Sequence record: DRR378314_135
Reading direction: 5' to 3' (one strand)
Length of the DNA: 20,000 nt
Within the stretch, counting starts at the first letter, position 1. Each line of letters begins with the position of its first letter. The notes beneath the pieces are model-generated. The model ran no database searches, was not told the origin of the DNA, and was given only the letters and a program-made list of their open reading frames with translations. Positions 1 through 19,661 of this stretch are shown here, piece after piece. A program made the translations under genes and the position numbers.

Positions 1-825
1 GAGACCTCAATCTCGAACCTTTTCCTAGCGGCGATCCTGCCCGGCCTGTTCATGGGCGCAATGATGCTACTGACATTGCCGCTGGCAAAACCATCCAGCG
101 GCCCCGCCGAAGCTCCCACTGTCGTAGCTCTCAGCCCGATGCCCCACGCAGCACAACCCTATGCGACCCGCCTCTGGCTGTCGTTTTGCGAGAGCTTCTG
201 GGGCCTTATGACTCCAGTGGTGATCCTGGGCGGCATTTACTCCGGCATTTTCACGCCGACCGAAGCCGCATTGGTCGCAACCGTCTACGCATTGCTCGTC
301 GGCGGTCTGGTCTATCGCACCCTTACCCTGCGGGGGCTATATCAGTCTCTTTCGGATGCAGCCGCCTCTTCGGCCACGGTGATGCTAGTGGTCGCATACG
401 CCAGCCTCTTTGGCTGGGTGGTCACGGTCGAAGATCTGGTTGGGCAATATTCCGATGCGCTTCTGGGTCTCAGTGGCAACGAATGGGTGATCCTGCTGGT
501 CATCATGGTGATCCTGCTCATCGCCGGAATGTTCATGGATGCGGTGACAGTGATGTTCATCTGCCTGCCGATCCTGATGCCCGTCGTACGTGAACTCGGC
601 TGGGATCCGATCTGGTTTGGTGTGCTGGTCATGGTCAATCTCGCCATTGGCCTCATCACACCACCCGTTGGCATCAACCTATATGTCGCAGCCAATGTAA
701 CGCGCCTTCCGATCGAAAAAGTCGCCCGTGGCGCAATGCCCTTTCTCTTCGTATGCCTGATCGGCCTTGCGGTGATCGGCTTCGTTCCACAACTGTCTCT
801 GGGCCTGCTAGGCCCCTCCAACTGA
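1..825 (+). CDS. dctM: TRAP transporter large permease (DctM family), 5' end outside the window
   Basis: Frame +1 is open from base 1 (ETSISNLFLAAILPG...). DctM motifs GGIYSGIFTPTEAA, GMFMD, DPIWFG and GLITPPVGINLYV are present. TGA at 823-825. Confidence 0.95.
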   Translation, partial: ETSISNLFLAAILPGLFMGAMMLLTLPLAKPSSGPAEAPTVVALSPMPHAAQPYATRLWLSFCESFWGLMTPVVILGGIYSGIFTPTEAALVATVYALLVGGLVYRTLTLRGLYQSLSDAAASSATVMLVVAYASLFGWVVTVEDLVGQYSDALLGLSGNEWVILLVIMVILLIAGMFMDAVTVMFICLPILMPVVRELGWDPIWFGVLVMVNLAIGLITPPVGINLYVAANVTRLPIEKVARGAMPFLFVCLIGLAVIGFVPQLSLGLLGPSN

Positions 826-838
826 GGACCCGAGATAT

Positions 839-1591
839 ATGTCAGAAAAAACCGCCATCGTTACCGGCGCCGCACGCGGCATTGGCCTTGCCACGACAAA
901 GCAACTCCTTGCCGAAGGCCGCCAAGTCGCGATGATCGACCGTGATGCAGACGTACTGATGCAGGAAGCTGGCGCGCTCGAAGGGGTGCTGCCCGTCGTC
1001 TGTGACGTGTCGGATCCGGATGCTGTCGCTGAAATGATGTCGACCTGCTACAGCGCGTTTGGCCGCATCGACGCCGTGGTCAACAACGCAGGCGTGGCGG
1101 ATTTCGGCCCCATCGAAGACACAAGTTTTGCCCGCTGGCGTCGAGTGATGGAAACCAACCTCGACGGCGTGTTCCTCTGCTCACAGGCCGCAATCCCGCA
1201 TCTGAGAGAAAGCAAGGGCGCCATCGTCAACATCGCGTCGATTTCAGGCCTGCGGGCTTCCACCCTGCGTGTGGCCTACGGAACATCCAAAGCAGCGGTG
1301 ATTCAACTGACCATGCAGCAGGCCGCAGAGCTGGGCGAATATGGCATCCGCGCCAACTGTGTCGCACCGGGCCCGGTGCGCACCAAATTGGCAATGGCTG
1401 TTCATAGCCAGGAAATCATCGATGCCTACCACGATGCCATTCCCCTCAACCGGTATGGGTCGGAGGACGAGATTGCATCTGTCATCGTATTCCTGTGCTC
1501 GGACAAGGCCAGCTATGTCACCGGACAGACTATCGCATCCGACGGCGGCTTTCAGTCCACCGGAGTCGGTCTCCCTGCCCTGCGCGTCTGA
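839..1591 (+). CDS. Classical SDR family NAD(P)-dependent oxidoreductase (FabG-like), 250 aa
   Basis: TGAARGIG nucleotide-binding motif, NNAG, catalytic YGTSK and C-terminal ASYVTGQ..DGG. GAGG upstream, 13 nt after the dctM stop. Confidence 0.95.
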   Translation: MSEKTAIVTGAARGIGLATTKQLLAEGRQVAMIDRDADVLMQEAGALEGVLPVVCDVSDPDAVAEMMSTCYSAFGRIDAVVNNAGVADFGPIEDTSFARWRRVMETNLDGVFLCSQAAIPHLRESKGAIVNIASISGLRASTLRVAYGTSKAAVIQLTMQQAAELGEYGIRANCVAPGPVRTKLAMAVHSQEIIDAYHDAIPLNRYGSEDEIASVIVFLCSDKASYVTGQTIASDGGFQSTGVGLPALRV

Positions 1592-1608
1592 TTTTCCACT
1601 GTAATTTG

Positions 1609-1637
1609 AACCAGCCGGGCCCGATGCCCGGCTGGTT
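1609..1637 (+). terminator. Stem-loop after the SDR gene, probable terminator
   Basis: AACCAGCCGGGC-ccgat-GCCCGGCTGGTT is a perfect 12-bp inverted repeat 17 nt after the stop. The U-tract is weak. Confidence 0.6.
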
Positions 1638-1866
1638 GCTGTGCCTGATAGGGTTCGATTGCAGCGGTTGAAGATCTGATCCACGGGATCACGCCGATTT
1701 TCACGACCGCGCAGCCCAATGCTTTTCTCGTACCCGAATCCTTGTTAGGGTTCGCGTGATTTTAAAGCTTAGGATTTATCCATTGGAAACGGTATCTTGC
1801 CCACCGCCGTGGAACCGCTTTTGTTCGCTCAATCAGGTTTCGCCAGAACCGGAAGCAGAGCATCAG

Positions 1867-2799
1867 TTGCTCAATCCGAATTTTTCACCGATCTCAAACG
1901 CCTCGGACTTTGATGCTAAACTGCTTGATGAGCTCGTTCCTCAAGCATCGTCCGACACCCCCCTGAAGCTGTTTGCGCTGCTCGGTGCCCGCCGCAGCAG
2001 TTTTTTGAAAGACTTGCTGGATATCTCGGGGCTGCCTCATGCCTGTCTCTATGATCTGGACCAAGATAATGATGACGATGGTGCTGGGGCCCCCTGGCTT
2101 GTAGAGCTGGATCCGGGATCGCCCTTCACTGCCAGCACGTTCACCCTCGACCCCGAAGCGAAGGATCCACGCAGGATGTTCGGTGACGGGATCTGGATCT
2201 GGAGCCCACTTTCATTGCAGGCGTTGCGGGCGCATCTGCGCCGCTACACACGGTTCGAAGACGAGCGGTCGGTCTGGATGCTGTTCAGACTGCAGGAACC
2301 TGGCATGTTGGATGCCCTGCTCCAGACCGCGCCCTGCGAGGCCCGAAGGCGTTTCTTTTCCGGCATTCACCGTATCATCTACCCTTGGCCCGCGCTCACA
2401 GAGGGGGAATGGGACCTTTTCGCAATGGAGCCTCCAACCTCCTCAACGCAAAACACCTCGTCTGATGCTGGTGGCCGCATGCTGCTGGAGCAGCGCGCAC
2501 GCAAGGCTCTCGCCTGTTTCGTCAACGACCGCACTGCGCGAAAGCTTGCGGCCGGCGAAATTCAAGTGCCCGAAGAACGCCCTGCCGCCTGTGACGTGTT
2601 CTTTCGCCTCCTGAACGCAGGCTACGATCACCCTCCCCGCCTGGTGGAAACATTCCGGCTGCTACAGCGCTGCCCGCCCGATGCGGCGCCACAGTTCTGG
2701 CATGAAGTTGAAAGCGGCGAACATTCTTTGCGGCGAATACTGCTGGTCTTTGCGGATCACTACAAAATCAAAGATGTCCTAGAGGAGCATGTCTGGTGA
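1867..2799 (+). CDS. DUF4123 domain protein (T6SS effector chaperone/adaptor, TEC/Tap-1 type)
   Basis: Motif order LFALLGARR...CLYD...APWLVEL...GIWIWSPLSLQALRAHLRRY...LFRLQEPGML follows the DUF4123 pattern. The start is uncertain: TTG 1867 is preferred, the ORF track starts at GTG 1756. Confidence 0.85.
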   Translation: MLNPNFSPISNASDFDAKLLDELVPQASSDTPLKLFALLGARRSSFLKDLLDISGLPHACLYDLDQDNDDDGAGAPWLVELDPGSPFTASTFTLDPEAKDPRRMFGDGIWIWSPLSLQALRAHLRRYTRFEDERSVWMLFRLQEPGMLDALLQTAPCEARRRFFSGIHRIIYPWPALTEGEWDLFAMEPPTSSTQNTSSDAGGRMLLEQRARKALACFVNDRTARKLAAGEIQVPEERPAACDVFFRLLNAGYDHPPRLVETFRLLQRCPPDAAPQFWHEVESGEHSLRRILLVFADHYKIKDVLEEHVW

Positions 2800-4643
2800 G
2801 CATCTGTGTAGAATGTGGCGAACTCGAACTCTACTACGTGCCAGCCTGCGGTGACCCGGCTGTCGGTGAGAGCAAGATCCTGCTCTACTCCGGCGAGGAG
2901 CTTCAGGCCTTGCATGCGGAAATCCGAGAGATGGATGCGGCCTTTGGGGCATTGGAAGAGGCCAAGGTCGACGGTGAGCCTCAGGCCATTGTCGACGCGC
3001 AGGATCACCTGACAATCCTGCTCAAGGGTTATATCAAGCCAACTGAAAACCTGCCGTCAAAACACCTGGTGCAGGCCTACTCGATCACGGGCAAGAAATG
3101 GACCCGCATTCGCAGTGACAAGATGCGCAATCACTGGCGCAGCTACAATGTCGACAAGTCGTTGCTGCGCGCACAACAGGGCACGGATGGACGGTCCGCG
3201 CTGGCACGCACGCAATTGCGTGACGCGTTCAAGGCAAGCGCCAAGAAGATCTCGGACGATCTGCAAAGAGGGATTTCCTACAATGGACAGATTGCGAAAG
3301 GGGTCGTCAGCGGATCAATTACCGAGTTGTGGGACGCCAATTGGCTGAAATGGGTCGATGCCGTCAATGAAAGCCTGACATATTCAACCGAAAATGCACA
3401 TTTCGACCTTTCCGCCGGAGCGCAGCTACTGCGCGGGTATGCAGGCTATGGCGTGCAATTGGGATATGACCCCAAGAAAGGCAGCTACGCGCTGAAAGGC
3501 AACGCGGAAGCCAAGGCAATCCTTGGCGAAGCGAAGGTAAGGTTCAGCGGCTACTTCGTCGACCGCGAGGGCTGGCACGCATTGGTTGATTTTACGGATG
3601 AAAAGGCCTCGGAAGCAGGACACCAGCAGCAGATCGATTTTGGCTATTTCCGCTTCCAGCTCCGGGTTGATGCAACCGCCATGCTCGGTGCCAGTATCTA
3701 CGGCACCGCAGGCATCGAATTTGCCACCGAACCAAGCGGCAGCGTCCGCGTCAAACCGACCGCTGCAGGCAGCAAGGGCGAAATTTCCGCCGGAGCCTTC
3801 GCCGGTGTCGAGGCCGGCGGAACCGCAACCGGCATGTTCGAATGGCGCAATCCTGGCTTCACAGAAGGCGAAGACGGTCGATTGCAAGAAGCCGGTTGGA
3901 AGGCCATGGTCTCGATCGGGACGTCGGTTCTGGGAGCGGCTGGCGCAGGCGCCGAGGCGACGCTCAAGATCCAGTTTGAGAATGGCAAGTTCATGTTTCG
4001 CTGCGAGGCCCGTGTGGTGCTCGGGATCGGCGCCAAGGGTGGACTGAATGGGCTGATCGATTTCCGTCGCATCGTTGAATTCATCCAGTACATCTACCAT
4101 CAGCTCAAGGATAACAATTTCGCGTTCCTACGATTTGTAGAGGAAGCCGCGTTCAACGCGATGGTTCAGGTCACACTGCTGCTCGTCGAAGGCATTGTGG
4201 ATGTTGCCGATGCCGCAGTTGAAGTGATCGAGGCCGCGTTGACGCGAGCGTTTGAACCCATCGCAGATGCCAACGCGGCAGAGGCCTTTGCACGGAAGGT
4301 GCAAGCCCGTCCAACGGCATTGATTTTTGCCGCACCGGAAGCAAAGGGCGCCATTCTTTATAAACTCTCCGAGAGATTTGTATGGTCTTGGGAGGAGCGC
4401 CAGGAGGCCGCGATTCTAACGGTGATTGGCACCCTGCAGTCCCGCCGAGAGTGGGAGCAGGTCGTTGAACGCATTACAATAGACGGTACGAAATCCAGCG
4501 CTGCAACAGGTCTTGCGCGGCTTCGCGCCGTTCTGGATGGCGGATCTGAGCGGAAGTTTGAATCGATGATCCGCGCAATCAACACTCTGCCGCCCGCCAC
4601 ACTGTATGCAGGGACACCTGTTGTCGTAAGGAACCTCGCGTGA
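2796..4643 (+). CDS. Putative T6SS effector of unknown activity, 615 aa
   Basis: GTG start overlaps the DUF4123 stop (GTGA) with GAGGAG at 2782-2787. Long Gly/Ala-rich central region and no recognised catalytic motif. The CDS is secure; the effector role is inferred from its position between DUF4123 and an FGE-like gene. Confidence 0.75.
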   Translation: MSICVECGELELYYVPACGDPAVGESKILLYSGEELQALHAEIREMDAAFGALEEAKVDGEPQAIVDAQDHLTILLKGYIKPTENLPSKHLVQAYSITGKKWTRIRSDKMRNHWRSYNVDKSLLRAQQGTDGRSALARTQLRDAFKASAKKISDDLQRGISYNGQIAKGVVSGSITELWDANWLKWVDAVNESLTYSTENAHFDLSAGAQLLRGYAGYGVQLGYDPKKGSYALKGNAEAKAILGEAKVRFSGYFVDREGWHALVDFTDEKASEAGHQQQIDFGYFRFQLRVDATAMLGASIYGTAGIEFATEPSGSVRVKPTAAGSKGEISAGAFAGVEAGGTATGMFEWRNPGFTEGEDGRLQEAGWKAMVSIGTSVLGAAGAGAEATLKIQFENGKFMFRCEARVVLGIGAKGGLNGLIDFRRIVEFIQYIYHQLKDNNFAFLRFVEEAAFNAMVQVTLLLVEGIVDVADAAVEVIEAALTRAFEPIADANAAEAFARKVQARPTALIFAAPEAKGAILYKLSERFVWSWEERQEAAILTVIGTLQSRREWEQVVERITIDGTKSSAATGLARLRAVLDGGSERKFESMIRAINTLPPATLYAGTPVVVRNLA

Positions 4644-5659
4644 TGAAAATCGGAACTGCTGCGCTATGTCTGGCCGTCTTAGCTGTGACTGCTGCCAGTG
4701 CCTATTGGGGCTATGGGAAATATGAGCAAAAACAACTCCATTCCGCGCTTGTAGAGAAGATCCGCAGCGATCTGGTCTACATCGAAGGCGGGGACTTCGA
4801 GACAGGGAATTACAAGATTGATTTCCAGTTCCCCAGTGGCGCGCGACGCTTGGTTTCGATCGTGGAAGACATGCCGCTGCCATCGCGCCGCGTGACGCTG
4901 GAGAACTACTATCTCTCGGCCTATGAAACGAGCTACTCCGACTTCAACGTTTATCTGCGCGCGCAAGGCTATCCGGTTCTCGAACCTCAGGAGTACCGCC
5001 GCTACCTTCCGGATCACGCCGCCGCCCTATCGCTGGAGGAGGCATCCGCGTATTGCGCATGGCTGGGAGAACAGGTCGGGACAATCATGCGCCTGCCGAC
5101 AGAAGCCGAGTGGGAATTTGCCGCACGCAGTCGAGGGCAAAATCCGGCTTGGGCCACGGATGACGGGAATTTTCGGCCTGGCGAAAACCTTGCCTATCTG
5201 GTGACCGATGATCTGACCGCAGCAGACCGGGACCCGCCGATCGGAAGCTATCCTCCGAACCCACTGGGTTTGTACAATCTTGCCGACGGTCTCTACGAGT
5301 GGGTGTCGGACCGCGCCCCTTCGGATCCAGATGGTTCCGCAATAGGCAAAGGTGCGAGCAACTTCACATCCCGGTTCACCGAGGTCATTCCACGCCGCAT
5401 CGTTGTGGAGCGTCTGACTGACAAAGCTCGGGACGACCTGCTTCAGGTGCTTGCGCCGGAAGATCGGCAACGCCTGATGCGCCAGAAAGATCCGCTAAGC
5501 CCGTATCGCAGCCGGGTAACCGCCCGATGCGCCGCGTCGGAAACACGCGAACCTGCTCAGTCCGGTTTTGGAACGACACCAGGCCCGGTCCAATTCAACC
5601 CGCCGTTCTATGCCGAGGGCGAGCACCCTCCCTTGGTCACCGCGCCCGCCGGAGAATGA
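4643..5659 (+). CDS. FGE/SUMF1-fold protein with N-terminal signal or membrane anchor; putative T6SS immunity protein
   Basis: IEGGDF, RLPTEAEWEFAAR and PIGSYPPNPLGLYNLADGLYEWVSD are FGE-sulfatase domain motifs. Hydrophobic N-terminus (KIGTAALCLAVLAVTAASA). TGATG overlap with the upstream stop (alternative GTG at 4640). The catalytic RGGS..C....C segment is absent. Confidence 0.85.
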   Translation: MKIGTAALCLAVLAVTAASAYWGYGKYEQKQLHSALVEKIRSDLVYIEGGDFETGNYKIDFQFPSGARRLVSIVEDMPLPSRRVTLENYYLSAYETSYSDFNVYLRAQGYPVLEPQEYRRYLPDHAAALSLEEASAYCAWLGEQVGTIMRLPTEAEWEFAARSRGQNPAWATDDGNFRPGENLAYLVTDDLTAADRDPPIGSYPPNPLGLYNLADGLYEWVSDRAPSDPDGSAIGKGASNFTSRFTEVIPRRIVVERLTDKARDDLLQVLAPEDRQRLMRQKDPLSPYRSRVTARCAASETREPAQSGFGTTPGPVQFNPPFYAEGEHPPLVTAPAGE

Positions 5660-5758
5660 AAGTAGCTTTGCAGCAACTGCAAGAACCGGGTTAGCGCGAT
5701 GCCTGTTGCGCCGGAACCAGAAAAGCTGAGCGGGCAGCAATATTCGCAGCTGAAACGT

Positions 5759-5789
5759 AAAGGCGGCACGGGTTGCCCCGCGCCGCTTT
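5759..5789. terminator. Probable bidirectional intrinsic terminator between convergent genes
   Basis: Minus strand reads AAAGCGGCGCGGG-GCAA-CCCGTGCCGCCTTT: a GC stem with one G-U pair, a GNRA loop and short T runs on both strands. Confidence 0.75.
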
Positions 5790-5811
5790 CATTCTTCGAG
5801 TGCGCGTGAGC

Positions 5812-6900
5812 TTACTCTGCGCAGGCCCGAATTTTCTCAATGTCGGGGCCATTCGGGTTGCGGCCGAGGTTGAATGGTGCGGAGGCCGCGCGCCAGTTGG
5901 AGTAATCCGCAAGATATTCGAGCTGGCTCAGGTAGACTTTTGCCGAGGATGGGTTTTCACAAGCCACATTCTCGATCACCGCGTTGGCGGTTTCCTGAAT
6001 TTTTGCCAGCGCTTCGTCGTCCATACGCGTGATCTCGTTAACTTCGAGGAACTGCTTATAGGCATCATTCGCCCGGCGCTCGGTGAAGGCCAGCGACCAC
6101 AGCATCGTCGCGTCGGCGGCAATCTCCAGCTTTTCCTGAGCTTCCGGGCTCAGCGCATCCCAGGACGCCTTGTTGATCATCACGCCAAAAACAGATGCAG
6201 ACTGATGCCAACCAGGCGTTGCCCAGTAACCGGTCACCTGCTGGAACCCACCAGACCAGTCCACGTTTGGCGTGGAGAATTCCGCTCCGTCGATCACGCC
6301 GCGCTCCAGAGATTGGTAAATTTCACCACCAGCCATGGAGACCTGGCTGCCGCCAAGCTCGTTGAGAAGCCGGCCCTGCTCGAGACCCGACACCCGAAGA
6401 CGCTTGCCCTGCAGATCGTCGATCGAACGGATCGGTTCCTTGGTGTGAAAACCAGACTCGTTGTTGGTCACCGCGTAGGGAAGATAGACCATGCCGAACT
6501 TGCCATAGGTCTCGTTATAAATTTCCTTGCCACCCCACTGCTGAATCCAGTTCACGTAGTCGACTGCGTTGAACAAACTGGAGGTGGTGGCGAGCGGCGA
6601 AAAGGCCGGGTCACGGCCCGCCCAGTAGCCAGGCCAGTCTGCGCCAGCTTGCACGATCCCGCTCTCGACGGCACCGAAAACTTCGCCTGACGGCACCAGG
6701 CTGCCCCCTTCAAAGAACTCAATGCTGACTTCGTCGCCCGCGAGCTTGTTCGCAAGCTCGACGAAATGCTTGTCGAATTCGATCAGTTCGAGCGACGAAG
6801 GCCAGGTTGTGGTCATCTGCCAGCTTTGCTGCGCAGATGCCGCACCAGCGGCCATGGTCACGGCGAAGGTGGCCGAAGCCAGCGTCTTTCCAAGTGTCAT
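5812..6900 (-). CDS. dctP: TRAP substrate-binding protein (DctP, TakP/FcbT1-like), 362 aa
   Basis: Signal peptide MTLGKTLASATFAVTMAAGAASA, then WQMTTTWP, EVFGAVESG, GYWAG, DLQGKRLR, GEIYQSLERGVIDGAEF and PGWHQ. Start set at ATG 6900 behind AGGAGG, not at 7152. Confidence 0.93.
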   Translation of the reverse strand: MTLGKTLASATFAVTMAAGAASAQQSWQMTTTWPSSLELIEFDKHFVELANKLAGDEVSIEFFEGGSLVPSGEVFGAVESGIVQAGADWPGYWAGRDPAFSPLATTSSLFNAVDYVNWIQQWGGKEIYNETYGKFGMVYLPYAVTNNESGFHTKEPIRSIDDLQGKRLRVSGLEQGRLLNELGGSQVSMAGGEIYQSLERGVIDGAEFSTPNVDWSGGFQQVTGYWATPGWHQSASVFGVMINKASWDALSPEAQEKLEIAADATMLWSLAFTERRANDAYKQFLEVNEITRMDDEALAKIQETANAVIENVACENPSSAKVYLSQLEYLADYSNWRAASAPFNLGRNPNGPDIEKIRACAE

Positions 6901-6923
6901 AGAGATCTCCTCCTGTCTCATTT

Positions 6924-8249
6924 TCAGTTTGGTTTGTAGAGCGCTTCCGGCAACCAGGTGACGAGCTGCGGAAACAGCGCGATTGCAATAGCCATCATCA
7001 GGATCAGACCGATGAAGGGCAGAACGCCAATAATGATGTCGGAGGTGCGTACCTCCTTTGGTGCCAATGCACGCAGATAGAACAGCGCATACCCGAAGGG
7101 AGGCGAAAGGAAGGAGGTCTGCAACACGACAGCGGTCAGAACCACGAACCACAATTCGCTGACGCCCATTTCCCGCACGATAGGCAGGAAAATCGGGAAG
7201 GACAGCAGCACGATGCCAGTCCAGTCAAGGAACATGCCGAGGATGAAGATGATGAACATCATCACAGCAATCAGCATCCATGGCTCCATTTCGAGCGACC
7301 GCATCAACTCCTGTGCGGCACGCAGACCGCCCGTGATATTGAACACCCCCGTAAACGCGGTTGCCCCCACAACGATGAACAGGATCATCGCTGACGTGCG
7401 TGCGGTTTCATGCAGGGCGGAGCGGAAGGTGCCCCACTCAAAACGCCCCCGGAAAATCACAATCCCAAGCGCCAGCGCTGCGCCGATCGCCGATGCCTCT
7501 GTTGCGGTGGCAATCCCAGCAAGCATAGTGCCCAGGATTCCAAAAATCAGCACCAGCGGAGGCAATGCTTCGAGCACCAGCATCCGCAGCAATGTTCCGC
7601 GTGAGACCTTCTCATCAAGCGCCACAGAGGGAGCCAGATCGGGCCGGAACATCGCGACCAGTGCGACATAGCCCGCGTAGAGCAAACCAAGGATAATGCC
7701 CGGCCCCATCGAACCGGCGAATAGTTCGCCAACAGACAGCGATGAGTTCGACGCCATGAGGATCAGCATGATCGAGGGGGGGATCAGGATCCCCAGACAC
7801 CCGGACGCTGCGATCACCCCGGTGGTAAGGCGCTTGGAGTACCCGTATTGCAGCATCGGCTTGAGCGCCATTACCCCCATAACGGTGATCGAGGCACCGA
7901 TGATGCCAGTGGTTGCCGCCAGCAGGATCGAGATAAACACCACCGCGAGCCCCAACCCACCGGTAACACGCGACATCAGAAGGCGCAGTGTCTCAAACAT
8001 TCGATCCGTCACGCCTGAATCGGACAGGAACCGCGCCATCAGCACAAACAACGGAATCGCGATAAGGATGTAGTTATCGAGAACCTCGCCGTAGATACGG
8101 TTGATGACGATGCCCAGCACCATAGGCTTGCCCGCGATGATCGCACCAAGCACAGCAGTGCCGCCAAGAACAAAGGCTAGAGGGTGGCCCATGAAGAGGC
8201 CGGTCAGCAACAAGCCCGCCATAATTAGACCGATGATCTCACCCGACAT
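6924..8249 (-). CDS. dctM: TRAP transporter large permease (DctM, FcbT3-like), 441 aa
   Basis: LIAIPLFVLM, LAATTGIIGAS, GCLGILIPPS and LQTSFLSPPFGYALFYLR; polytopic membrane protein. Confidence 0.95.
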   Translation of the reverse strand: MSGEIIGLIMAGLLLTGLFMGHPLAFVLGGTAVLGAIIAGKPMVLGIVINRIYGEVLDNYILIAIPLFVLMARFLSDSGVTDRMFETLRLLMSRVTGGLGLAVVFISILLAATTGIIGASITVMGVMALKPMLQYGYSKRLTTGVIAASGCLGILIPPSIMLILMASNSSLSVGELFAGSMGPGIILGLLYAGYVALVAMFRPDLAPSVALDEKVSRGTLLRMLVLEALPPLVLIFGILGTMLAGIATATEASAIGAALALGIVIFRGRFEWGTFRSALHETARTSAMILFIVVGATAFTGVFNITGGLRAAQELMRSLEMEPWMLIAVMMFIIFILGMFLDWTGIVLLSFPIFLPIVREMGVSELWFVVLTAVVLQTSFLSPPFGYALFYLRALAPKEVRTSDIIIGVLPFIGLILMMAIAIALFPQLVTWLPEALYKPN

Positions 8250-8742
8250 GGTGCTGCTCCGATTTCTTGAGGATGAGCTTCAGGACCTCTGAAATGCCCT
8301 GAATGGCCAGAAGCACTGCAGCGATCGCCATGGCGATCTTGACCGGATAGACCGGGATTTGAATGGCACCATAAGTGGTCTCGTTCTGCGCATAGGAGCG
8401 CAGTGCGAACTCCCAACTTTTGCTTACAAAAATCCAGCAGAAGGGAAAAAAGAAAATCAGATAGCCAAGCACGTCAACAGCCCGACGCAACGGCGGAACC
8501 AGGTTTTCGGTGAGCAAATCGACACGGACATGCGCCTGATGACGCAACGCGTAGCCCCCAAGCATCACGAAGTAAAACCCGTAGAGCATCTTGGTAAGAT
8601 CGAACGCCCAAAGCGTCGGAGCATTGAAGCCGTACCGCATGATCACGTCGTAGATAATCATGCCTGCAAATATGATGGCAATAAAGGAGACCGCCTTGCC
8701 GACGACCTCGTTCAGCCCGTCAACGAGACGGATCAGAACCAT
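8239..8742 (-). CDS. dctQ: TRAP transporter small permease (DctQ, FcbT2-like), 167 aa
   Basis: YDVIMRYGFNAPTLWAFD and HVRVD motifs, four hydrophobic segments, GGGAGG RBS, overlaps the dctM start. Confidence 0.93.
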   Translation of the reverse strand: MVLIRLVDGLNEVVGKAVSFIAIIFAGMIIYDVIMRYGFNAPTLWAFDLTKMLYGFYFVMLGGYALRHQAHVRVDLLTENLVPPLRRAVDVLGYLIFFFPFCWIFVSKSWEFALRSYAQNETTYGAIQIPVYPVKIAMAIAAVLLAIQGISEVLKLILKKSEQHHVG

Positions 8743-8831
8743 TGTGATTTCCTCCCTGCAAAGGCACCTGCAAACCTGTCGCGAACCTTTTGGCGTAGAC
8801 TAGGCAGCGCACTCGCGTTTGACATGGAGAA

Positions 8832-8860
8832 ATCTGCAGACCATTACTGCAGATATGCAG
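8832..8860. promoter_or_regulatory. Candidate LysR operator in the divergent dctQ/lysR promoter region
   Basis: ATCTGCAG-N7-CTGCAGAT (8832-8854) interlocks with CTGCA-N4-TGCAG (8847-8860), which overlaps the lysR start codon. Confidence 0.5.
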
Positions 8861-9784
8861 AACAGCTTCGACTGGAATGACCTCAAGGTTTTTCTCACGC
8901 TACATCGCATGAAACGCATGACAGACGCAGGCAAGGTGCTTGGCGTCGATCAGACGACGATTGCCCGCCGTATCAAGGCACTGGAGGCATCGATCGGAAC
9001 ACATCTTTTTGTGCGCAGGGCGGACGGGTTTGAGCTGACGCAAGCCGGACACCGGATCCTGCCCTTCGCCCTTGACATCGAACAATCGGGGGAACAGCTG
9101 CACGAAGAGGTTTCAGGCCAAAATAAGCGCCTGTCGGGCCGGGTCCGCGTCGGTGCGCCTGACGGCCTGGGTACCTTTTTTGTGCCCTCGATTCTCACTC
9201 ATTTCCAACAGGATCACCCGGATGTCGACATCGAGGTCGTCGCCAGTTCGCGCGAGTTTCGCATTGCCGAACAGGAGGTGCATCTCGCGCTCTGCCTGTC
9301 ATTGCCCGAAAGTGGCCGCCTGTTGGCCCGCAAGCTTGCTGACTATCACCTGTATTTCTTCGGGTCGGCAGAATACATTGAGAAGCACGGCACACCTCAG
9401 GAACTGAGTGAGCTGCAGGGACACCGTCTCGTTGGCTATATCTCCGATATGCTATTCTCACCGGAGGTTCGTTTTCTGGAAGAACTCGGTTTGCGCGAAA
9501 TGGTGCGCTTTGCCTCAAGCTCCATGGCAGCACAGCGCGAAGCCATTCGCTCCGGGGCGGGTCTCGGAATCCTGCCCCGGTTCATGTCCCTGAACGATCC
9601 GAGCCTCGTGCCCGTCCTAACCGAGCGCTATCTTCTCAAACGTACAGTTTGGATTGTGAGCCATCAAAGCACCGAAGATCTGGCCCGCGTCCGCTCGGTC
9701 TCCGAATACCTCCAGCGCTCCGCCAGATCTCGACGCGGCGATCTGTTGCTGCCGGACGATCTTGGGCAACCCGGGCCGAGGTGA
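8855..9784 (+). CDS. LysR family transcriptional regulator, about 309 aa
   Basis: N-terminal HTH (WNDLKVFL...AGKVLGVDQTTIARRIKALEASIGTHLF..R), LSGRVRVGAP and a C-terminal substrate-binding domain. Divergent from dctQMP. Start taken at ATG 8855. Confidence 0.95.
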   Translation: MQNSFDWNDLKVFLTLHRMKRMTDAGKVLGVDQTTIARRIKALEASIGTHLFVRRADGFELTQAGHRILPFALDIEQSGEQLHEEVSGQNKRLSGRVRVGAPDGLGTFFVPSILTHFQQDHPDVDIEVVASSREFRIAEQEVHLALCLSLPESGRLLARKLADYHLYFFGSAEYIEKHGTPQELSELQGHRLVGYISDMLFSPEVRFLEELGLREMVRFASSSMAAQREAIRSGAGLGILPRFMSLNDPSLVPVLTERYLLKRTVWIVSHQSTEDLARVRSVSEYLQRSARSRRGDLLLPDDLGQPGPR

Positions 9785-9832
9785 CCAGCTGCTGCAGCGT
9801 GTTGGCCGACTACAAGCCACGCTGATTGAAGC

Positions 9833-9937
9833 TTTGGTGGCGTCAAATCCAGCGGCTATGGGCGCGAAGGCGGCACCGATGGATTGAAGAGCGACCTCAC
9901 GACGCACAACGTTTGATCCAGCGCCGAAATCGCCTGA
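9833..9937 (+). pseudogene. Aldehyde dehydrogenase C-terminal remnant
   Basis: Hand translation gives FGGVKSSGYGREGGTDGLKSDLTTHNV*SSAEIA*, colinear with the end of the intact ALDH at 11667-13097 (FGGVKASGQGREGGAEGLDSYLSVKNVWHSRSIT*). No start codon, one internal stop. Confidence 0.85.
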
Positions 9938-10014
9938 ATGGCCTTTCCACACAGATGTCGATCTTGGATTTATCATGCAGTACAATATGATAGATGGAAA
10001 CATACGGGCAGTTT

Positions 10015-10376
10015 GAAGGAGACTATCGCCGACAGCGGCAACGCACGACCCGCCTGGCCCGCCTGGCCATCGGGTTGCCGTCGAGGGTGGTCATCACTGC
10101 ACCTGCGTCCCCGGGTACGTTGAGCAGGATCGACGAGATCCTCCCACCATATTCCGCACCGTAGTATATACCGGCCAGCAGGATCAGCGCCGCCTCGGGC
10201 TGGAAACCCAAACCGTAGGCGATGGGCAGCAGGATCGCCACACCGTTGATGGGAGCAAGGCCCGGAAGTGAACCGATCAGCGTGCCCACAAAGCAGCCGA
10301 CCAGCACCAGCATGAGGTTGACCGGATCGAGGGCGACGGCAAAGCCTGTCGCGAGACCGGAAAACACCGCGTCCAT
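10015..10376 (-). pseudogene. tctA: TctA (TTT large permease) N-terminal remnant, frameshifted and truncated
   Basis: GTLIGSLPGLAPINGVAILLP...GAEYGGRISSILLNVPGDAGAVMTTLDGNPMAR, then a frame change near 10062 to GQAGRALPLSAIVSF, after which similarity ends. About 120 codons against about 500 for a full TctA. Confidence 0.9.
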
Positions 10377-10798
10377 CAGTTGGCCTCCGTTTCAAAGCGT
10401 TCGAGCAGGGCTTCGATCAACGCGCCCTCCGGCGGGTTAAGATCCATCAGGCTCACGCACAGCAGCCAGCCGAGAATACCGGCCGCAATGCCAAATGCCA
10501 GCGCACGCCAGCGCGGCGCACCCAGCATCCGCGCGAGGATGGTGTCGAAAATGGCGGTTGAGACAATGAAACCCAGTGGTTCGTAGAGGCGCCCGTAGGC
10601 GAGCAGCATGACAATTACGGCAGCTAGGTGGAACCATACCTTTTGGGTCAGCTCCAGGCTGTCGATGTCCGGCTTCCAAAGCACGCGCGCCAGACACAGG
10701 GTGGCGACAATGGACAGGATTTGGGGCCAGCTTTCGGGCCCGAGCGAGTCGTATTGGAACGGTGCCTGGATAACGGTGAACGCGATGATCGCGTATGC
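10376..10798 (-). pseudogene. tctB: TctB (TTT small permease), 5'-truncated
   Basis: The frame continues upstream of the called GTG as AYAIIAFTVIQAPFQYDSLGPESWPQILS...LYEPLGFIVST. No start codon precedes it. TGATG overlap with tctA. Confidence 0.8.
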
Positions 10799-10935
10799 GC
10801 AGCAATGCGGAATGGGGCATTGGATGCACCGTATCCCTTGTAGCCACCGTTCCTCTGCACGATTTCTAAGAACATGTCGCCCGCGTAGAGCCGGGAATAA
10901 ACTGGAAGAAAGTGCTCGCCTTGATCGACGCCGTA
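10798..10935 (-). pseudogene. C-terminal remnant of a QuiC1-type dehydroshikimate dehydratase / HPPD-like fusion protein
   Basis: YGVDQGEHFLPVYSRLYAGDMFLEIVQRNGGYKGYGASNAPFRIAA resembles the conserved C-terminus (FFEIVxRxGGYxGYGAxNAPxRxAA) of the sugar-phosphate-isomerase/HPPD fusion family. The rest of the gene is missing. Confidence 0.75.
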
Positions 10936-11002
10936 CCCTGGCGTCACACCAGCGAAATCCGCGGCCCTACCAACCCGCCCGCCCTCGCATGTGTACAGCA
11001 CA

Positions 11003-11036
11003 ACAAAACAGCACGCCCCGGTGCGGGACACGCTGT
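11003..11036 (-). terminator. Intrinsic terminator after nbaC
   Basis: Minus strand ACAGCGTGTCCCG-CAC-CGGGGCGTGCTGT-TTTGTTG: a stem with G-U pairs followed by a T-rich tail, about 20 nt after the nbaC stop. Confidence 0.65.
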
Positions 11037-11054
11037 CTGCCTTTTGAAGTCAAT

Positions 11055-11621
11055 TCAGAGCTGCACCCAGTCCTCTGGCGGCTTGCCCTTGCCGGGGTGA
11101 ACCTCGCCGCATGACTGGCAGGTGCGTGCCTCGATGTTGGCGTGGAATGCCTCGTAGATCTTGGGCAGCGCCGAGACGATGCCATCGGTACCTTCCAACG
11201 TGACCTCCTCACGGTGGACGAGCGCCTCGCAGTTGAAGCAGAACCATTCGAAGCCCTCGGTCATGCCAGGCTGGCGCGGCGCCTCGACGACGATACCGAT
11301 GGACCCCTCCTGCGGACGCTGCGGCGCGTGGCGCACATGCGGCGGCAGCATGAACACCTCGCCCTCACGCACCGGCACATCATAGATTTTGCCGCCGTCG
11401 GCGATCTTGATCATCATGTCGCCCTTCTGCTGAAAGAACCATTCCTCCACCGGGTCGTCATGGAAATCGCAGCGGGTGTTGGGGCCGCCGACCACCATGA
11501 CGATCATGCCGTCGCCGTCCTTGTGCAGCAGCTGGTTGCCAACCGGCGGCTTTAGCTTGTCGGCGTTCTCTGCCAGCCATTTCTGAAAGTTGAAGGGCTT
11601 CAGCTTGGGGTGATTGGACAT
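11055..11621 (-). CDS. nbaC: 3-hydroxyanthranilate 3,4-dioxygenase, 188 aa
   Basis: LKPPVGN, VVGGPNxRxDFH..PVEEWFFQQKG, HAPQRP and VVE motifs, plus the rubredoxin-like CFNC and CQSC pairs. GGAGG RBS. Confidence 0.96.
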   Translation of the reverse strand: MSNHPKLKPFNFQKWLAENADKLKPPVGNQLLHKDGDGMIVMVVGGPNTRCDFHDDPVEEWFFQQKGDMMIKIADGGKIYDVPVREGEVFMLPPHVRHAPQRPQEGSIGIVVEAPRQPGMTEGFEWFCFNCEALVHREEVTLEGTDGIVSALPKIYEAFHANIEARTCQSCGEVHPGKGKPPEDWVQL

Positions 11622-11666
11622 TTGTGACCTCCTTGGGACTGTAACTGTTGCCTTGCGTGCGGTGAG

Positions 11667-13097
11667 TCAGGTGATGGACCGGGAATGCCAGACATTCTTG
11701 ACTGACAGATAGCTGTCCAGGCCCTCGGCGCCGCCTTCGCGGCCCTGGCCGCTGGCCTTGACCCCACCAAAAGGGGTTTCCGGCAGCGAGGCCTCCAGCG
11801 TGTTGATCGACAGGTTGCCGACCTCGATCTCGTCAATCATCCGGTCGATGTAATCGGCGCGGTTGGTCATGCCATAGCCTGCCAGCCCATAAGGCACCGC
11901 GTTGGCGGCAGCGATGGCCGCATCCAGGTCCACCACCGGGTTCAGCACCGCAATCGGGCCAAAGGGTTCTTCCTGCATGATCTGTGCCTCAGGCGGCACG
12001 TTGGCCAGCACCGTCGGCTGGAAGAAATAGCCGCGGTCCCCCAGCCGCGCGCCGCCGGTCAGCAACTCAGCACCCTTGGCGACAGCATCCTCCACCAGCG
12101 CCGTCAGCACCGGGATACGGCGTTCGTTGGCAGTCGGCCCCATCTCGACGCCCGGTTCCATACCGTTGCCCACAACGGTGGCGGCGGCGCGTTTGGTGAA
12201 GCGGGTCTTGAATTCCTCAAAGATACTGTGATGCACAAAGAACCGTGTTGGCGAGGTGCAAACTTGGCCGGTGTTGCGCATCTTGCGGATAGCACCACTG
12301 AGCGCAGCCTTTTCCACATCCGCGTCCTCGCAGACGATGACCGGTGCGTGGCCGCCCAACTCCATCAGCGCGCGGGTGTCATGGCGCGCCGCCAGCGCCG
12401 TCAACTGGCGCCCTACTGCGGTGGAGCCAGTCAGCGCGACCAGCTTTACCGCCGGTTGCGGGATCAGGAATTCGGAGATCTCTGAGGGCACCCCGAACAC
12501 CAGGTTCAGCACCCCGGCTGGCAGACCCGCATCCTCGAATGCGCGCACGATATGCACCGCGCCACCGGGCGTTTCCTCGGCCGCCTTCAGGATGATCGAA
12601 CAGCCCGATGCTAGCGCCCCCGCGACCTTGCGCGCGGGTTGGCTCATCGGGAAGTTCCAGGGCGAGAACGCAGCCACCACCCCGATGGGATGATGATGAA
12701 CCGATAGCTTGGAGCCCGCTGCCGCCGGGATGACTCGGCCATAGGCGCGCATCGCCTCGCCCGCGTCCCATTCAAAGAACTCGGCACCACGGATCACTTC
12801 CAACCGGGCCTGCGCCAACGGCTTGCCATGCTCGGCAGTGATGGTCAGGGCGATCTCCTCTTGCCGATCGCGCATCAGCGCGGCGGCGCGCAGGATGATA
12901 TCGGCACGTTCCCGCGGCGCAGTCCGGCTCCAGATCGCCAGCCCTTTTTCGGCCGCCGCCAGTGCATCCCGCAGATCCGCGCGCCCGGCGCAGGGCAGTT
13001 GCCCCAATTCTTCTTCGGTCGCCGGGTTGACGACAGCGATGCTGCGCTCCGCCTTGCGCCAATGGCCATCGATAAAGAGGTTGAGATCGGGATACAT
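11667..13097 (-). CDS. NAD(P)-dependent aldehyde dehydrogenase, GabD/alpha-ketoglutaric semialdehyde dehydrogenase-like, 476 aa
   Basis: PWNFP, LTGSTAVG, MELGGHAP, RNTGQVCTSPTR (catalytic Cys), EEPFGP and PFGGVKASG. Start at ATG 13097 behind AGGAGG. Confidence 0.93.
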   Translation of the reverse strand: MYPDLNLFIDGHWRKAERSIAVVNPATEEELGQLPCAGRADLRDALAAAEKGLAIWSRTAPRERADIILRAAALMRDRQEEIALTITAEHGKPLAQARLEVIRGAEFFEWDAGEAMRAYGRVIPAAAGSKLSVHHHPIGVVAAFSPWNFPMSQPARKVAGALASGCSIILKAAEETPGGAVHIVRAFEDAGLPAGVLNLVFGVPSEISEFLIPQPAVKLVALTGSTAVGRQLTALAARHDTRALMELGGHAPVIVCEDADVEKAALSGAIRKMRNTGQVCTSPTRFFVHHSIFEEFKTRFTKRAAATVVGNGMEPGVEMGPTANERRIPVLTALVEDAVAKGAELLTGGARLGDRGYFFQPTVLANVPPEAQIMQEEPFGPIAVLNPVVDLDAAIAAANAVPYGLAGYGMTNRADYIDRMIDEIEVGNLSINTLEASLPETPFGGVKASGQGREGGAEGLDSYLSVKNVWHSRSIT

Positions 13098-13224
13098 ATG
13101 CCTGCGCCTCCTGCATTGAACGGCCCGATTAGGCGCAGGCCCGGCACACGCGTTCAACTGATATCCGGGAAAGCTGATATGCCGTTTGCTGATAGCAAGG
13201 CTGCAGACTCGCCGAAGAGATCCG

Positions 13225-13935
13225 CTAGGCCTGATCTTCTACCCGGTCAAAGAAGCGACGTGTAAAGCCCGCGTGTTCTTCCAGCAGACGCACCGCTTGC
13301 TCCTCGTCGCGTGCCAGAACCGCCTCCATCAGCTTGGTGTGGTGGGCAATGCCAAGGGCGGCGCGGCTATGGGCGATCAACTCCGGGCTGCCCAGAAACT
13401 TGTCGCGGTTGTCCCCCGTGAACATGCTGAAAAAATGCCGGTCCAGATGGTTGGAAATCTGCGCGTAGAACAGGTTCAGCCACTGCGAGCGCGACGCCGC
13501 CAGCAGCGCCCTGTGAAAGCCCCGGTGACGGTCCGACCACACCCACAGCTCATCCAGATCACTGGTCTCCGCCGGTTCGGTCGCTTTGGCCAGCAGGTGG
13601 TGGCTGGACAGGATCGCCGCCTCCCAGGCGTCATCGCCATGCGCAATCGCCTCGCGCAGCAGCGCGGTTTCGATCACCAGGCGACAGCCTTCCAGGTCCA
13701 TGAGTTCTGCCTGGGTCACCGCCGCGGCGCGGAAGCCGCGGTTGTTCTCCATCACCACGAATCGCTCGCTCTCCAACCGCCGCAGCGCCTCGCGCATCGG
13801 CGTCACGCCCAGGCCGCTTTCCTTGCCCAGCGCCGGGATCCGCAGCGGCGCCTCGGGTGGAATTTTCGCCTCAATCAACTGCTTGAGCAGGAATTGATAG
13901 GCCATTTCTGACTTTGACGACGCGGGTAAATCCAT
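13225..13935 (-). CDS. GntR family regulator with FCD domain, 236 aa
   Basis: Winged HTH (LRIPAL...GVTPMREALRRLESE...NRGF) and FCD motif HRGFHRALLAASRS...HHTKLMEAVLARD. Divergent from kynU. Confidence 0.93.
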   Translation of the reverse strand: MDLPASSKSEMAYQFLLKQLIEAKIPPEAPLRIPALGKESGLGVTPMREALRRLESERFVVMENNRGFRAAAVTQAELMDLEGCRLVIETALLREAIAHGDDAWEAAILSSHHLLAKATEPAETSDLDELWVWSDRHRGFHRALLAASRSQWLNLFYAQISNHLDRHFFSMFTGDNRDKFLGSPELIAHSRAALGIAHHTKLMEAVLARDEEQAVRLLEEHAGFTRRFFDRVEDQA

Positions 13936-13956
13936 TGATTGACCTTCAGAAATATA

Positions 13957-13987
13957 ATCGTATACGATAAGTCAAATCATATACGAT
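13957..13987. promoter_or_regulatory. Tandem GntR-type operators between gntR and kynU
   Basis: Perfect palindrome ATCGTATACGAT (13957-13968) and a one-mismatch copy ATCATATACGAT (13976-13987) in an AT-rich divergent spacer. Confidence 0.7.
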
Positions 13988-14042
13988 TGAAGTGTGCATA
14001 TTGGTTTTATCAGTTGCACACCCAGCCCGAGAAGGAAAGCCA

Positions 14043-15293: not shown

Positions 15294-15481
15294 CCGGTTG
15301 CCGCGCCCAGCGCGCGGCATTTGCCCCCATACCCTGATATCACGGGACCGCCTTGGCGGCGCCTCCCGTGATGCCCCCTGCCCTGCGCCTGAAGCTGCAC
15401 CCCAAGAATGCAGAAGGGTGCCCCTTAGCCACCCCGAGCTAGCAGAGGCCAATAATTTTTCAAACCCAACGGGAGGACCAC

Positions 15482-16429: not shown

Positions 16430-16442
16430 ATGCCAGACCCGT

Positions 16443-16474
16443 CCTCGCGGCTGCAGCTTGCGCCGCGAGGTTTT
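16443..16474 (+). terminator. Intercistronic stem-loop between tctC and tctB
   Basis: CCTCGCGGC-N10-GCCGCGAGG followed by TTTT. May stabilise tctC mRNA or act as a partial terminator. Confidence 0.55.
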
Positions 16475-16490
16475 GCGACAGGAGAAAACC

Positions 16491-16913: not shown

Positions 16914-16925
16914 GGAGGGGGTGCG

Positions 16926-18431: not shown

Positions 18432-18444
18432 GCGCCGCCCCGAC

Positions 18445-18476
18445 GGGGCGCTGGCATACCGCCCAGCGCCCCTCTT
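18445..18476 (+). terminator. Probable terminator after tctA
   Basis: GGGGCGCTGG-N8-CCAGCGCCCC followed by TCTT. Confidence 0.55.
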
Positions 18477-18493
18477 GGTATATCATTAATTAA

Positions 18494-19555
<1,062 letters not shown>

Positions 19556-19577
19556 CCGTGCACCGCCCCGCCGTTAC

Positions 19578-19614: not shown

Positions 19615-19661
19615 CCTGCCCCTGCCCTGATATTCCTCACCCAACCCATGGTTTCACCCTG

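Follow-up and report, generated by a model that had tools for sequence, protein, structure and literature searches.

A likely orphan type VI secretion adaptor-effector-immunity cassette with an FGE-fold immunity protein, lying among transporter genes

Introduction

The locus described here raises the question of whether three overlapping genes that lie among transporter genes, with no vgrG beside them, encode a part of a type VI secretion system (T6SS), and what the large protein encoded by the middle gene does. The genes lie in a 20,000-nucleotide stretch of sequence record DRR378314_135, and this whole stretch is called the window below. A sequence-only reading had proposed that they form an orphan antibacterial module made up of a DUF4123 adaptor, an effector and an FGE-fold immunity protein. 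The analysis reported here supports that proposal through domain matches, through a gene triad that is conserved in other genomes, and through relatives of the effector that are fused to VgrG or PAAR or encoded next to vgrG. The cassette is very likely a T6SS adaptor-effector-immunity module that is orphan within the window.

Results

Three overlapping genes and their domains

The cassette consists of the following genes (lengths in amino acids, aa):

1756-2799 (347 aa, GTG start at 1756) or 1867-2799 (310 aa, in-frame TTG start at 1867), plus strand: gene 1, DUF4123 adaptor/chaperone
2796-4643, plus strand, GTG start: gene 2, 615-aa cargo effector (putative toxin) of an unnamed family
4640-5659, plus strand, start at GTG 4640 or ATG 4643: gene 3, predicted FGE-fold immunity protein, 339 aa

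The GTGA and TGATG overlaps that had been read as coupling the three genes are both present in the sequence. GTGA at 2796-2799 joins gene 1 to gene 2, with the GTG start of gene 2 overlapping the TGA stop of gene 1, and within GTGATG at 4640-4645 the TGA stop of gene 2 overlaps both possible starts of gene 3, GTG 4640 by 4 nucleotides (nt) or ATG 4643 by 1 nt. Shine-Dalgarno-like sites are found ahead of gene 2 (GAGGAG, 2783-2788) and ahead of gene 3 (AAGGAA, 4628-4633). Because the stops and starts overlap and these sites stand at the proper distance, translational coupling is indicated, and the three genes are probably translated as a single coupled unit. The conservation of the triad in other genomes, with protein identities of 43-73% for gene 2, shows the three open reading frames (ORFs) to be real genes. 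A scan for sigma-70 promoters gave nothing upstream of gene 1 (1 site in the region against 1.7 expected), and such a scan is uninformative for this organism.

Gene 1 matched the Pfam family DUF4123 (PF13503) at 49.9 bits against a cut-off of 25.8 (E 4.5e-13), with residues 72-197 covering profile positions 1-117 of 119. Gene 3 matched the Pfam family FGE-sulfatase (PF03781) at 81.8 bits against a cut-off of 23.3 (E 8.3e-23), covering profile positions 4-192 of 255 and leaving the C-terminal quarter of the profile unmatched. Both scores are above the Pfam gathering scores, and the identities proposed for these two proteins were thereby confirmed. Gene 2 matched no Pfam family (only a chance-level Nsp1_C row was returned, E 0.086), none of the NCBIfam models at E<=1 and no PDB sequence. 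The Pfam and NCBIfam models for pore-forming effectors of the MIX/VasX/BTH_I2691 kind did not match it.

The start of gene 1 (1756 or 1867) stays open because the N-termini of its homologues, which are proteins of 315-342 aa, are too divergent to align. An 8-bp hairpin with a T-rich tail occupies positions 1735-1754 and ends two bases ahead of GTG 1756. This hairpin would cover the ribosome-binding region of GTG 1756, and TTG 1867 is therefore mildly favored.

The triad is conserved in related genomes

A large protein collection contained 45 relatives of gene 2. Most of them, 44, measure 603-629 aa (42-73% identity); the remaining one is a frameshifted protein of 394 aa. All 45 are unnamed and without Pfam domains, and the taxa named are Thioclava, Paracoccus, Yoonia, Ascidiaceihabitans, Litoreibacter or similar. 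When loci were scanned with one genome per species, 35 were obtained, 18 alpha- or gammaproteobacterial and 17 distant. The triad lies on one strand in all 18 loci of the first group. A DUF4123 gene stands directly upstream of the effector gene in the window, which has no vgrG, and also in these 18 loci (17 detected by phmmer, and the remaining one, L027, by Pfam), while in all 18 the FGE gene is the next one downstream, again on the same strand. Two of the 18, L018 and L019, have identical gene maps. They are two contigs of one Celeribacter ethanolicus assembly, and their identical 21.8-kb maps represent either a large duplication or an assembly duplicate.

A vgrG gene was found within the flanks (up to 10 kb on each side) in 9 of the 18 related loci. 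In L027, a metagenome-assembled genome (MAG) of the Oceanospirillales, the order is the canonical vgrG-DUF4123-effector-FGE. Other triad loci lie amid unrelated genes, as the window cassette does; in L020, for example, these are genes for a LodA oxidase, a P450 and a GST. The 'orphan' placement is therefore common for this cassette.

Distant relatives tie the effector family to the T6SS

By record title, 16 of the 17 distant loci are betaproteobacterial, and the other is a short contig titled Chitinophagaceae. Their proteins, about 690 aa long, match effector residues of about 100-615 at 24-28% identity. A VgrG-like ORF is directly upstream of the effector homologue in all 17. An FGE gene is directly downstream in 15, on the opposite strand in 14; in the two loci that have none, the contig breaks off too early.

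A profile of the close family was searched against 1.84 billion cluster representatives and returned 673 at E<=0.001, 509 at 1e-10 and 241 at 1e-30, where the 673 are clusters at 50% identity. Most of these relatives are 680-890 aa long, with the homologous region at the C-terminal end. VgrG was found in 5 of the 147 family representatives listed beyond the close family. Pfam searches with 8 of the longest relatives found Phage_GPD/Phage_base_V in 4, PAAR in 2 of those 4, and LysM in 1; in P0064, P0089, P0138 and P0152, Phage_GPD, with or without PAAR or DUF2345, is placed N-terminal of the homologous region. Among 55 relatives sampled across the family, 14 contained LysM, 2 Phage_GPD, 1 PAAR and 1 OmpA. 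VasX_N was seen in one distant relative at 25.9 bits, under its cut-off of 27. No Pfam or NCBIfam model covered the shared toxin region in any relative scanned.

Public records provide independent confirmation of this T6SS context. Aliivibrio salmonicida pVSAL840 has the order Hcp-VgrG-DUF4123-LysM effector homologue, followed by a SUMF1/EgtB/PvdO gene on the opposite strand, and its homologue of gene 2 was found at E 6e-26 in the search and at 8e-38 by pairwise blastp. On a Cronobacter dublinensis plasmid, VgrG, the homologue, two SUMF1/EgtB/PvdO genes and PAAR follow one another between genes for TssH and an ImcF-related protein. The Klebsiella pneumoniae record NZ_CP079635.1 (L098, 3804-14625) has vgrG, an effector homologue split over several ORFs and FGE-lipoprotein genes in tandem, four of them intact and one split. 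The record, which is labelled as a plasmid of 1 Mb, carries no more than 5 annotated features. With the Cronobacter protein as the query, 118 proteins were returned, among them proteins from records of E. coli, Enterobacter, Citrobacter, Salmonella, Klebsiella michiganensis and Pseudomonas, and the toxin family is also present in Klebsiella and Vibrio records.

Homologues of the middle gene are thus found near vgrG or PAAR in all 17 distant loci, in plasmid records and in fusions. The fusions to VgrG or PAAR, the position directly after vgrG and the FGE genes beside these relatives support the earlier suggestion that gene 2 encodes an effector. Judged from its sequence relatives, the protein appears to be a member of a large unnamed toxin family whose members have FGE-fold immunity partners across the Proteobacteria.

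Enterobacterial and Pseudomonas members of the family (P0184, P0267-P0320) are often named 'ATPase', others 'hypothetical protein'. None of the family members scanned has an ATPase domain, and the label is probably a propagated misannotation.

Gene 3 resembles FGE in part only

The N-terminal hydrophobic leader of gene 3 (aa 1-24, MKIGTAALCLAVLAVTAASA) is a signal peptide or a signal anchor. A hydrophobic N-terminal segment is also present in the 12 homologues with a clear start among those whose N-termini were inspected, and it is lipobox-like in those from beta- and gammaproteobacteria. Gene 3 is 29-36% identical to FGE lipoproteins encoded beside homologous effectors in T6SS loci of Klebsiella, Cronobacter and Aliivibrio. 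A prediction of the effector-immunity complex, run without controls, scored 0.00 and gave no verdict; it counts neither for nor against binding.

Solved FGE, PvdO and PorK chains align to gene 3 residues 74-229 only, and the part of FGE beyond gene 3 residue 229 does not align. It is in this C-terminal part of FGE that the catalytic Cys pair is presumably situated. A close Cys pair is absent from gene 3, which has three cysteines in all: C10 in the leader, C139 in a conserved AYC.W motif, and C297. The two active-site cysteines of FGE are described as binding copper in Lopez et al. 2021 (bioRxiv 10.1101/2021.05.21.445229). With an FGE match that ends at profile position 192 of 255 and no more than three cysteines, gene 3 is probably not an enzyme.

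These data bear on an explanation that does without the T6SS, in which the exported gene 3 protein would be a PvdO/FGE/EgtB-like oxidative enzyme whose substrate is the 615-aa protein or a small molecule, and the DUF4123 protein would be a generic chaperone. The best NCBIfam rows for gene 3 are PvdO, GldK, SenA and EgtB, as this explanation would have it, although all lie far under their cut-offs (e.g. 47.7 bits against 500). However, the truncated FGE match and the small number of cysteines speak against catalysis, and in alpha-, beta- and gammaproteobacteria the family is linked with vgrG, hcp, PAAR and T6SS cores, as well as with VgrG fusions. In addition, experiments with the FGE-domain protein Tsi3 argue for binding over catalysis (Lopez et al. 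2021). The explanation is extremely improbable.

Domains of the effector and its likely site of action

Alignment and modeling divide gene 2 into parts, three of which can be placed as follows:

2796-3050, plus strand: effector N-terminal module (aa 1-85), with C4, C7, C18 and D20 invariant in the alignment, then two helices
3384-4061, plus strand: effector central domain (aa 197-422), Gly/Ala-rich, with predicted long amphipathic beta-hairpins; putative toxic or membrane-active part
4062-4595, plus strand: effector C-terminal helical domain (aa 423-600), with AlphaFold2 pLDDT 85-96 over residues 480-600

The N-terminal module is restricted to the 615-aa subfamily. In distant relatives the alignment does not begin until about residue 90-100, and their own N-termini are different, carrying LysM, VgrG or PAAR. 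The module is presumed to be the loading or adaptor-binding part. Residues 4-20 (2805-2858) form a C-x2-C-x10-C motif with the invariant D20, found in the 615-aa subfamily only, and this motif may be a small metal-binding knuckle that acts as the adaptor handle. Other conserved positions of the 615-aa subfamily lie in a stretch of about residues 88-115 (H90, Q93, R106-S-D-K109, H113), and the C-terminal domain has the conserved motifs PPE.KG and E.QE.AI. The columns that are invariant across the whole superfamily are R213, F335 and glycines (mostly Gly), which is not a catalytic set.

An AlphaFold2 model built from a 67-sequence alignment (mean pLDDT 74.3, pTM 0.56) superseded an earlier model from 18 close sequences, in which pLDDT was 60 and the center was not resolved. 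It has four parts: an N-terminal beta-hairpin with two helices, a mixed region (90-195), the central domain (197-422) and the helical C-terminal domain. The strands of the central domain are 20-35 residues long, and the four longest alternate hydrophobic and polar faces. In composition this domain is 16% G and 14.5% A. When residues 197-432 were compared with known folds by VIA, the top rows were the RCD-1 pore (Z 7.3), C5b8 (7.0), the PlyB pore and gasdermin B (both 6.5), perforin (5.8) and gasdermin D (5.3). A fold search with the C-terminal domain gave generic helical-repeat matches only, with Z up to 6.5. In the ESM Atlas the nearest clusters were all 'hypothetical protein', and the nearest named one was a LysM cluster at 0.78, which is a lead only.

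The immunity proteins of the family carry export signals, so the neutralizing encounter is placed in the periplasm, and LysM or OmpA on 15 of the 55 sampled relatives points in the same direction, toward an envelope or periplasmic target. It is possible, though held only tentatively, that the effector acts on the envelope from the periplasm, and that it does so most likely through the modeled amphipathic beta-hairpins, which would insert in the inner membrane as a pore or permeabilizer. Several observations count against such a pore. Amphipathic strands are also normal in soluble sheets, and the effector has no hydrophobic helix (the top 19-residue Kyte-Doolittle mean is 1.23). Foldseek against PDB gave nothing at E<=0.001 for either model. 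The VIA values for the central domain (Z 5.3-7.3, rmsd 8.6-22.5 A) are at the level typical of unmatched models. The LysM fusions fit a cell-wall enzyme equally well. The membrane-permeabilizer reading is leading but weak, because the fold matches are at noise level and Foldseek returned nothing significant.

The main alternative keeps the same T6SS module and has the effector act enzymatically, on the cell wall or on some other target in the periplasm; the beta-rich center would then be a scaffold or binding part, with catalysis in residues 88-120 (TRIRSDK...H.R.Y) or in the C-terminal helical domain. The fusions of relatives to the peptidoglycan-binding LysM (14 of 55) and OmpA (1 of 55) suit this alternative, as do the predicted periplasmic location of the immunity protein, judged from its leader, and the invariance of H90, S107, D108, K109 and H113 within the 615-aa subfamily. 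LysM-bearing T6SS effectors of A. baumannii are predicted to be peptidoglycan hydrolases (PMC6833914, Table 1). However, none of the His, Ser or Asp candidates is invariant across the superfamily, where only R213, F335 and glycines are, and no hydrolase family or fold was matched by Pfam, NCBIfam, PDB, Foldseek or VIA. An enzyme is therefore a doubtful but serious candidate.

A T6SS is likely in this strain, and the cassette is variable

The module proposed here depends on a T6SS elsewhere in the genome. The nearest genome, G001, is 96% identical at the nucleotide level over window 10985-20000, and it encodes TssC, several VgrGs and two other DUF4123 genes. A VgrG match at E<=0.001 was found in all 24 genomes scanned (23 with an effector homologue, plus G001) and exceeded the family cut-off in 23 of them. 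TssC was found in 15 of 17 carrier genomes and in 16 of 20 genomes of the window's genus. Since T6SS genes are present in the nearest genome, in most of the genus and in most carriers, this strain likely has a T6SS as well, to judge by its relatives' sequences.

Some findings weigh against a functional T6SS module. The T6SS evidence comes from the genomes of relatives and not from the window's own genome. G001 lacks the effector, together with the whole of window 1-10984. No TssC match was found in 4 of the 20 genomes of the genus or in 2 of the 17 carriers, namely G007 (a MAG with a weak VgrG match) and G009 (a draft). The link to the Acinetobacter baumannii proteins abTse3 (WP_001070510.1) and abTsi3 (WP_032046197.1), which is discussed below, runs through shared relatives and locus layout, not through direct sequence comparison. 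Finally, a protein from another public assembly of 4.4 Mb (P0025) is identical to effector residues 1-340 and then continues in another frame to a stop at 394 aa, with the frameshift site corresponding to window nt 3813-3820 or so (around codon 340). This near-identical copy may mean that the module is decaying in this lineage, or it may be a sequencing error.

If such observations are given full weight, the cassette would be a stranded or decaying remnant, with no cognate VgrG or no T6SS, an undelivered effector, and an immunity gene retained against the toxin of neighbors. The absence of the cassette from G001, its detection by DNA search in only 1 of 61 relatives (G027, on the same contig as L016), the genomes of the genus without TssC and the frameshifted copy, in which the first 340 residues are kept, are all in line with this. 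The window itself is without vgrG, hcp and PAAR among the scanned ORFs. The earlier statement to that effect stands for vgrG, as no ORF in the window is VgrG-like and all window ORFs scanned with Pfam are non-T6SS, and is less complete for PAAR, for which the small ORFs were not exhaustively scanned. However, all three frames in the window are intact and translationally coupled with Shine-Dalgarno-like sites, and the triad is likewise complete and intact in eight other loci without vgrG in their flanks. In addition, orphan modules in which a DUF4123 protein and its effector load onto a distant VgrG are well known, reportedly from the work of Liang in 2015 and Unterweger in 2015. A remnant is quite improbable, and an intact orphan module remains the preferred reading.

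How the cassette reached this site was followed by synteny. No genome among the 61 relatives has both flanks adjacent minus the cassette. The right-hand TRAP/LysR block is present in G042 (78% nucleotide identity) next to other neighbors, and G025 and others have the SDR gene only. At the cassette ends there are no direct or inverted repeats beyond matches of chance size, and no integrase or transposase. An insertion is thus neither shown nor excluded, because a genome with both flanks adjacent is wanting. Of the idea that the cassette had been inserted among transporter operons, what stands is the triad as a unit kept in 18 of 18 loci elsewhere; the insertion event itself is not demonstrable, with no empty site among the 61 relatives. 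The G+C content is 53-60% over window 1-10984 and mostly 60-68% in the part shared with G001. A TctB gene fragment (10376-10684, minus strand, 102 aa, profile positions 63-134 of 137) lies near the synteny break. The fragment, the lower G+C and the absence of this part from G001 together suggest an old rearrangement.

Boundaries and neighboring genes

The cassette is bounded and flanked by the following features:

1609-1637, plus strand: terminator-like hairpin with a 12-bp stem after the SDR gene, left boundary of the cassette
5762-5787, both strands: right boundary of the cassette, a hairpin that is terminator-like in both directions and lies between gene 3 and DctP, which converge
1-825: partial DctM gene, left flank
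839-1591: SDR gene, left flank
5812-8742, minus strand: DctP/DctM/DctQ genes (TRAP transporter), right flank
8819-9784: LysR gene, right flank

The stem-loops that had been described as bounding the cassette were located at 1609-1637 and 5762-5787. For the left one, the minimum free energy of a 71-nt stretch is -29.9 kcal/mol (z-score -3.7), and 0 of 200 shuffled sequences were as stable; no strong T-run was read in the sequence downstream of it. The right hairpin folds on both strands, with T-runs on each; its GC-rich stem is 10 bp long, and on the minus strand it scores as terminator-like. The neighbors were identified as TRAP-transporter, SDR and LysR genes and are, as had been said of them, unrelated to the cassette. 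Farther right there are kynurenine-pathway genes, GntR, TctCBA and another DctP. The region 11055-15293 holds a cluster for tryptophan/kynurenine catabolism that adjoins the TctCBA transporter, made up of genes for 3-hydroxyanthranilate dioxygenase, an aldehyde dehydrogenase, a GntR/FCD regulator and kynureninase.

Several relatives have two or three DUF4123-effector units near vgrG, the cassette being one of them, and such regions can be called 'effector islands'. Here DUF4123 genes are also paired with a 958-aa protein (L022), a 977-aa protein (L027) and a Reprolysin-like metallopeptidase (L023). The coordinates of these islands in their loci are:

L017: 7646-8767 (minus strand) and 13101-16662
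L022: 13069-18237
L023: 5707-8785
L025: 15143-16111 (minus strand)
L026: 7752-8783 (minus strand)
L027: 14301-18556

Discussion

The model proposed here for the cassette is as follows. The DUF4123 protein encoded by gene 1 would hold the 615-aa effector, probably via its N-terminal Cys-motif module, and would dock it on a VgrG spike encoded elsewhere in the genome, so that loading would take place in trans. The T6SS would then fire the effector into neighboring Gram-negative cells. The gene 3 protein would be exported to the periplasm of the producer, where it may stay anchored or be free, and it would protect the producer and its kin by binding the effector rather than by catalysis.

This layout can be set beside known cargo modules. 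DUF4123-dependent cargo effectors include TseL with Tap-1 and VasX with VasW in Vibrio cholerae, and Tde1 with Tap-1 in Agrobacterium. As in those Tap-1/Tec systems, the DUF4123 gene here stands immediately upstream of the effector gene and the immunity gene follows, the module can sit off the T6SS core, and the Aliivibrio relative has the textbook order hcp-vgrG-DUF4123-effector. In contrast, no MIX, VasX_N, lipase or nuclease domain was found in the window effector by Pfam.

The pairing of an effector with an FGE-fold immunity protein has a real precedent in Acinetobacter, as the sequence-only reading had stated. In A. baumannii ATCC 17978 the FGE-domain protein Tsi3 binds and neutralizes Tse3, an antibacterial effector whose function is given as unknown (Lopez et al. 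2021, bioRxiv 10.1101/2021.05.21.445229; J Bacteriol 203:e00281-21). Tsi3 homologues, identified there by RPS-BLAST against the Tsi3 profile at E<1e-50, are reported to be widespread, alphaproteobacteria included, with a T6SS in about 98% of the strains that carry them and with K. pneumoniae among the sources. They often occur in tandem, commonly on the strand opposite to the tse3 homologue, and vgrG, hcp, PAAR and DUF4123 are enriched near them. Tsi3 and its homologues are also described as lacking the FGE catalytic cysteines. Another source gives abTse3 as 1001 aa with 'no conserved domain' (PMC6833914). Two further papers (PMC9765294, PMC12949010) only cite Lopez et al.

The window cassette resembles Tse3-Tsi3 in that an FGE-fold immunity protein is encoded beside a large effector without recognized domains, and in that the family is found with vgrG, hcp, PAAR and DUF4123, with tandem FGE genes in some relatives. 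Immunity by binding, as demonstrated for Tsi3, would also apply to gene 3. An FGE gene beside a T6SS effector, the Tsi3-type context, is found in all 18 close loci and in 15 of the 17 distant ones. The Tse3-type layout vgrG-effector-FGE, often with FGE on the opposite strand, is found in the distant homologues and in Aliivibrio, but not in the window. Here the immunity gene is on the same strand and coupled, whereas the paper stresses the opposite strand; the effector has 615 aa instead of 1001 and an N-terminal Cys-motif module of its own; a DUF4123 adaptor replaces the direct vgrG linkage; and the immunity leader looks to be of the signal peptide or anchor type, not a lipobox. The beta- and gammaproteobacterial layouts match the published Tse3-Tsi3 layouts, and by this analogy the window cassette would most simply be a DUF4123-dependent, same-strand, short-form member of the same system. 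No Acinetobacter protein was found among the close relatives, in two cluster look-ups (20 representatives), in the search that gave the Aliivibrio homologue or among the 118 proteins of the Cronobacter-seeded search, and a second profile search for Tse3 returned only the same 45 close relatives. The lists of Tsi3 homologues of Lopez et al. may already include these Rhodobacterales proteins. An Aeromonas 'Tsi3' (PMC12396204) proved to be unrelated naming, and a SUMF1 gene in a Pantoea preprint is mentioned there merely as a neighbor.

A second comparison concerns the mode of action. VasX, Ssp6 and Tme are membrane-depolarizing or pore-forming T6SS effectors. Another is Tke5 of Pseudomonas putida, a membrane-depolarizing T6SS effector of the BTH_I2691 family (cited in PMC13340143). 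The window effector is like these four in its proposed site of action at the envelope, in a periplasmic or membrane immunity protein and in adaptor-dependent delivery, and its putative toxic part is Gly-rich and non-enzymatic in appearance. It is unlike them in having no sequence match to their families (0 NCBIfam models at E<=1) and in its predicted architecture of long beta-hairpins instead of helical glycine zippers. A wider and more speculative proposal, which is on the whole unlikely, is that the 615-aa protein and the 673 clusters, probably including Acinetobacter Tse3, are a new class of beta-hairpin pore-forming T6SS toxins. Under this proposal four long amphipathic hairpins of the model would enter the inner membrane from the periplasm in a gasdermin/MACPF-like manner, and the FGE fold would have been recruited as a periplasmic inhibitor. 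The roseobacter-type members would have swapped a LysM- or VgrG-linked N-terminus for a DUF4123-read Cys3 module, and their cassette would travel free-standing.

Modules of the adaptor-effector-immunity kind are already known, and what this cassette adds is a DUF4123-adaptor cargo effector with Tsi3-type FGE-fold immunity. The effectors that have FGE-fold immunity partners thereby gain a branch from the roseobacter group (Rhodobacterales), within a toxin family that is widespread and yet has no Pfam or NCBIfam model for its toxin part. The data suggest contact-dependent antagonism among marine Rhodobacterales with strain-level variation, since the nearest genome lacks the cassette and another assembly has it with a frameshift. 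In its short 615-aa form the effector is little more than the toxin itself and comes with a coupled adaptor and immunity gene in a non-pathogenic marine host, and is therefore a convenient system for studying the toxin activity and its neutralization by an FGE-fold protein. For the biochemical activity of this toxin family, and with it of Tse3-type effectors in general, the compact and self-contained cassette would be a good experimental handle.

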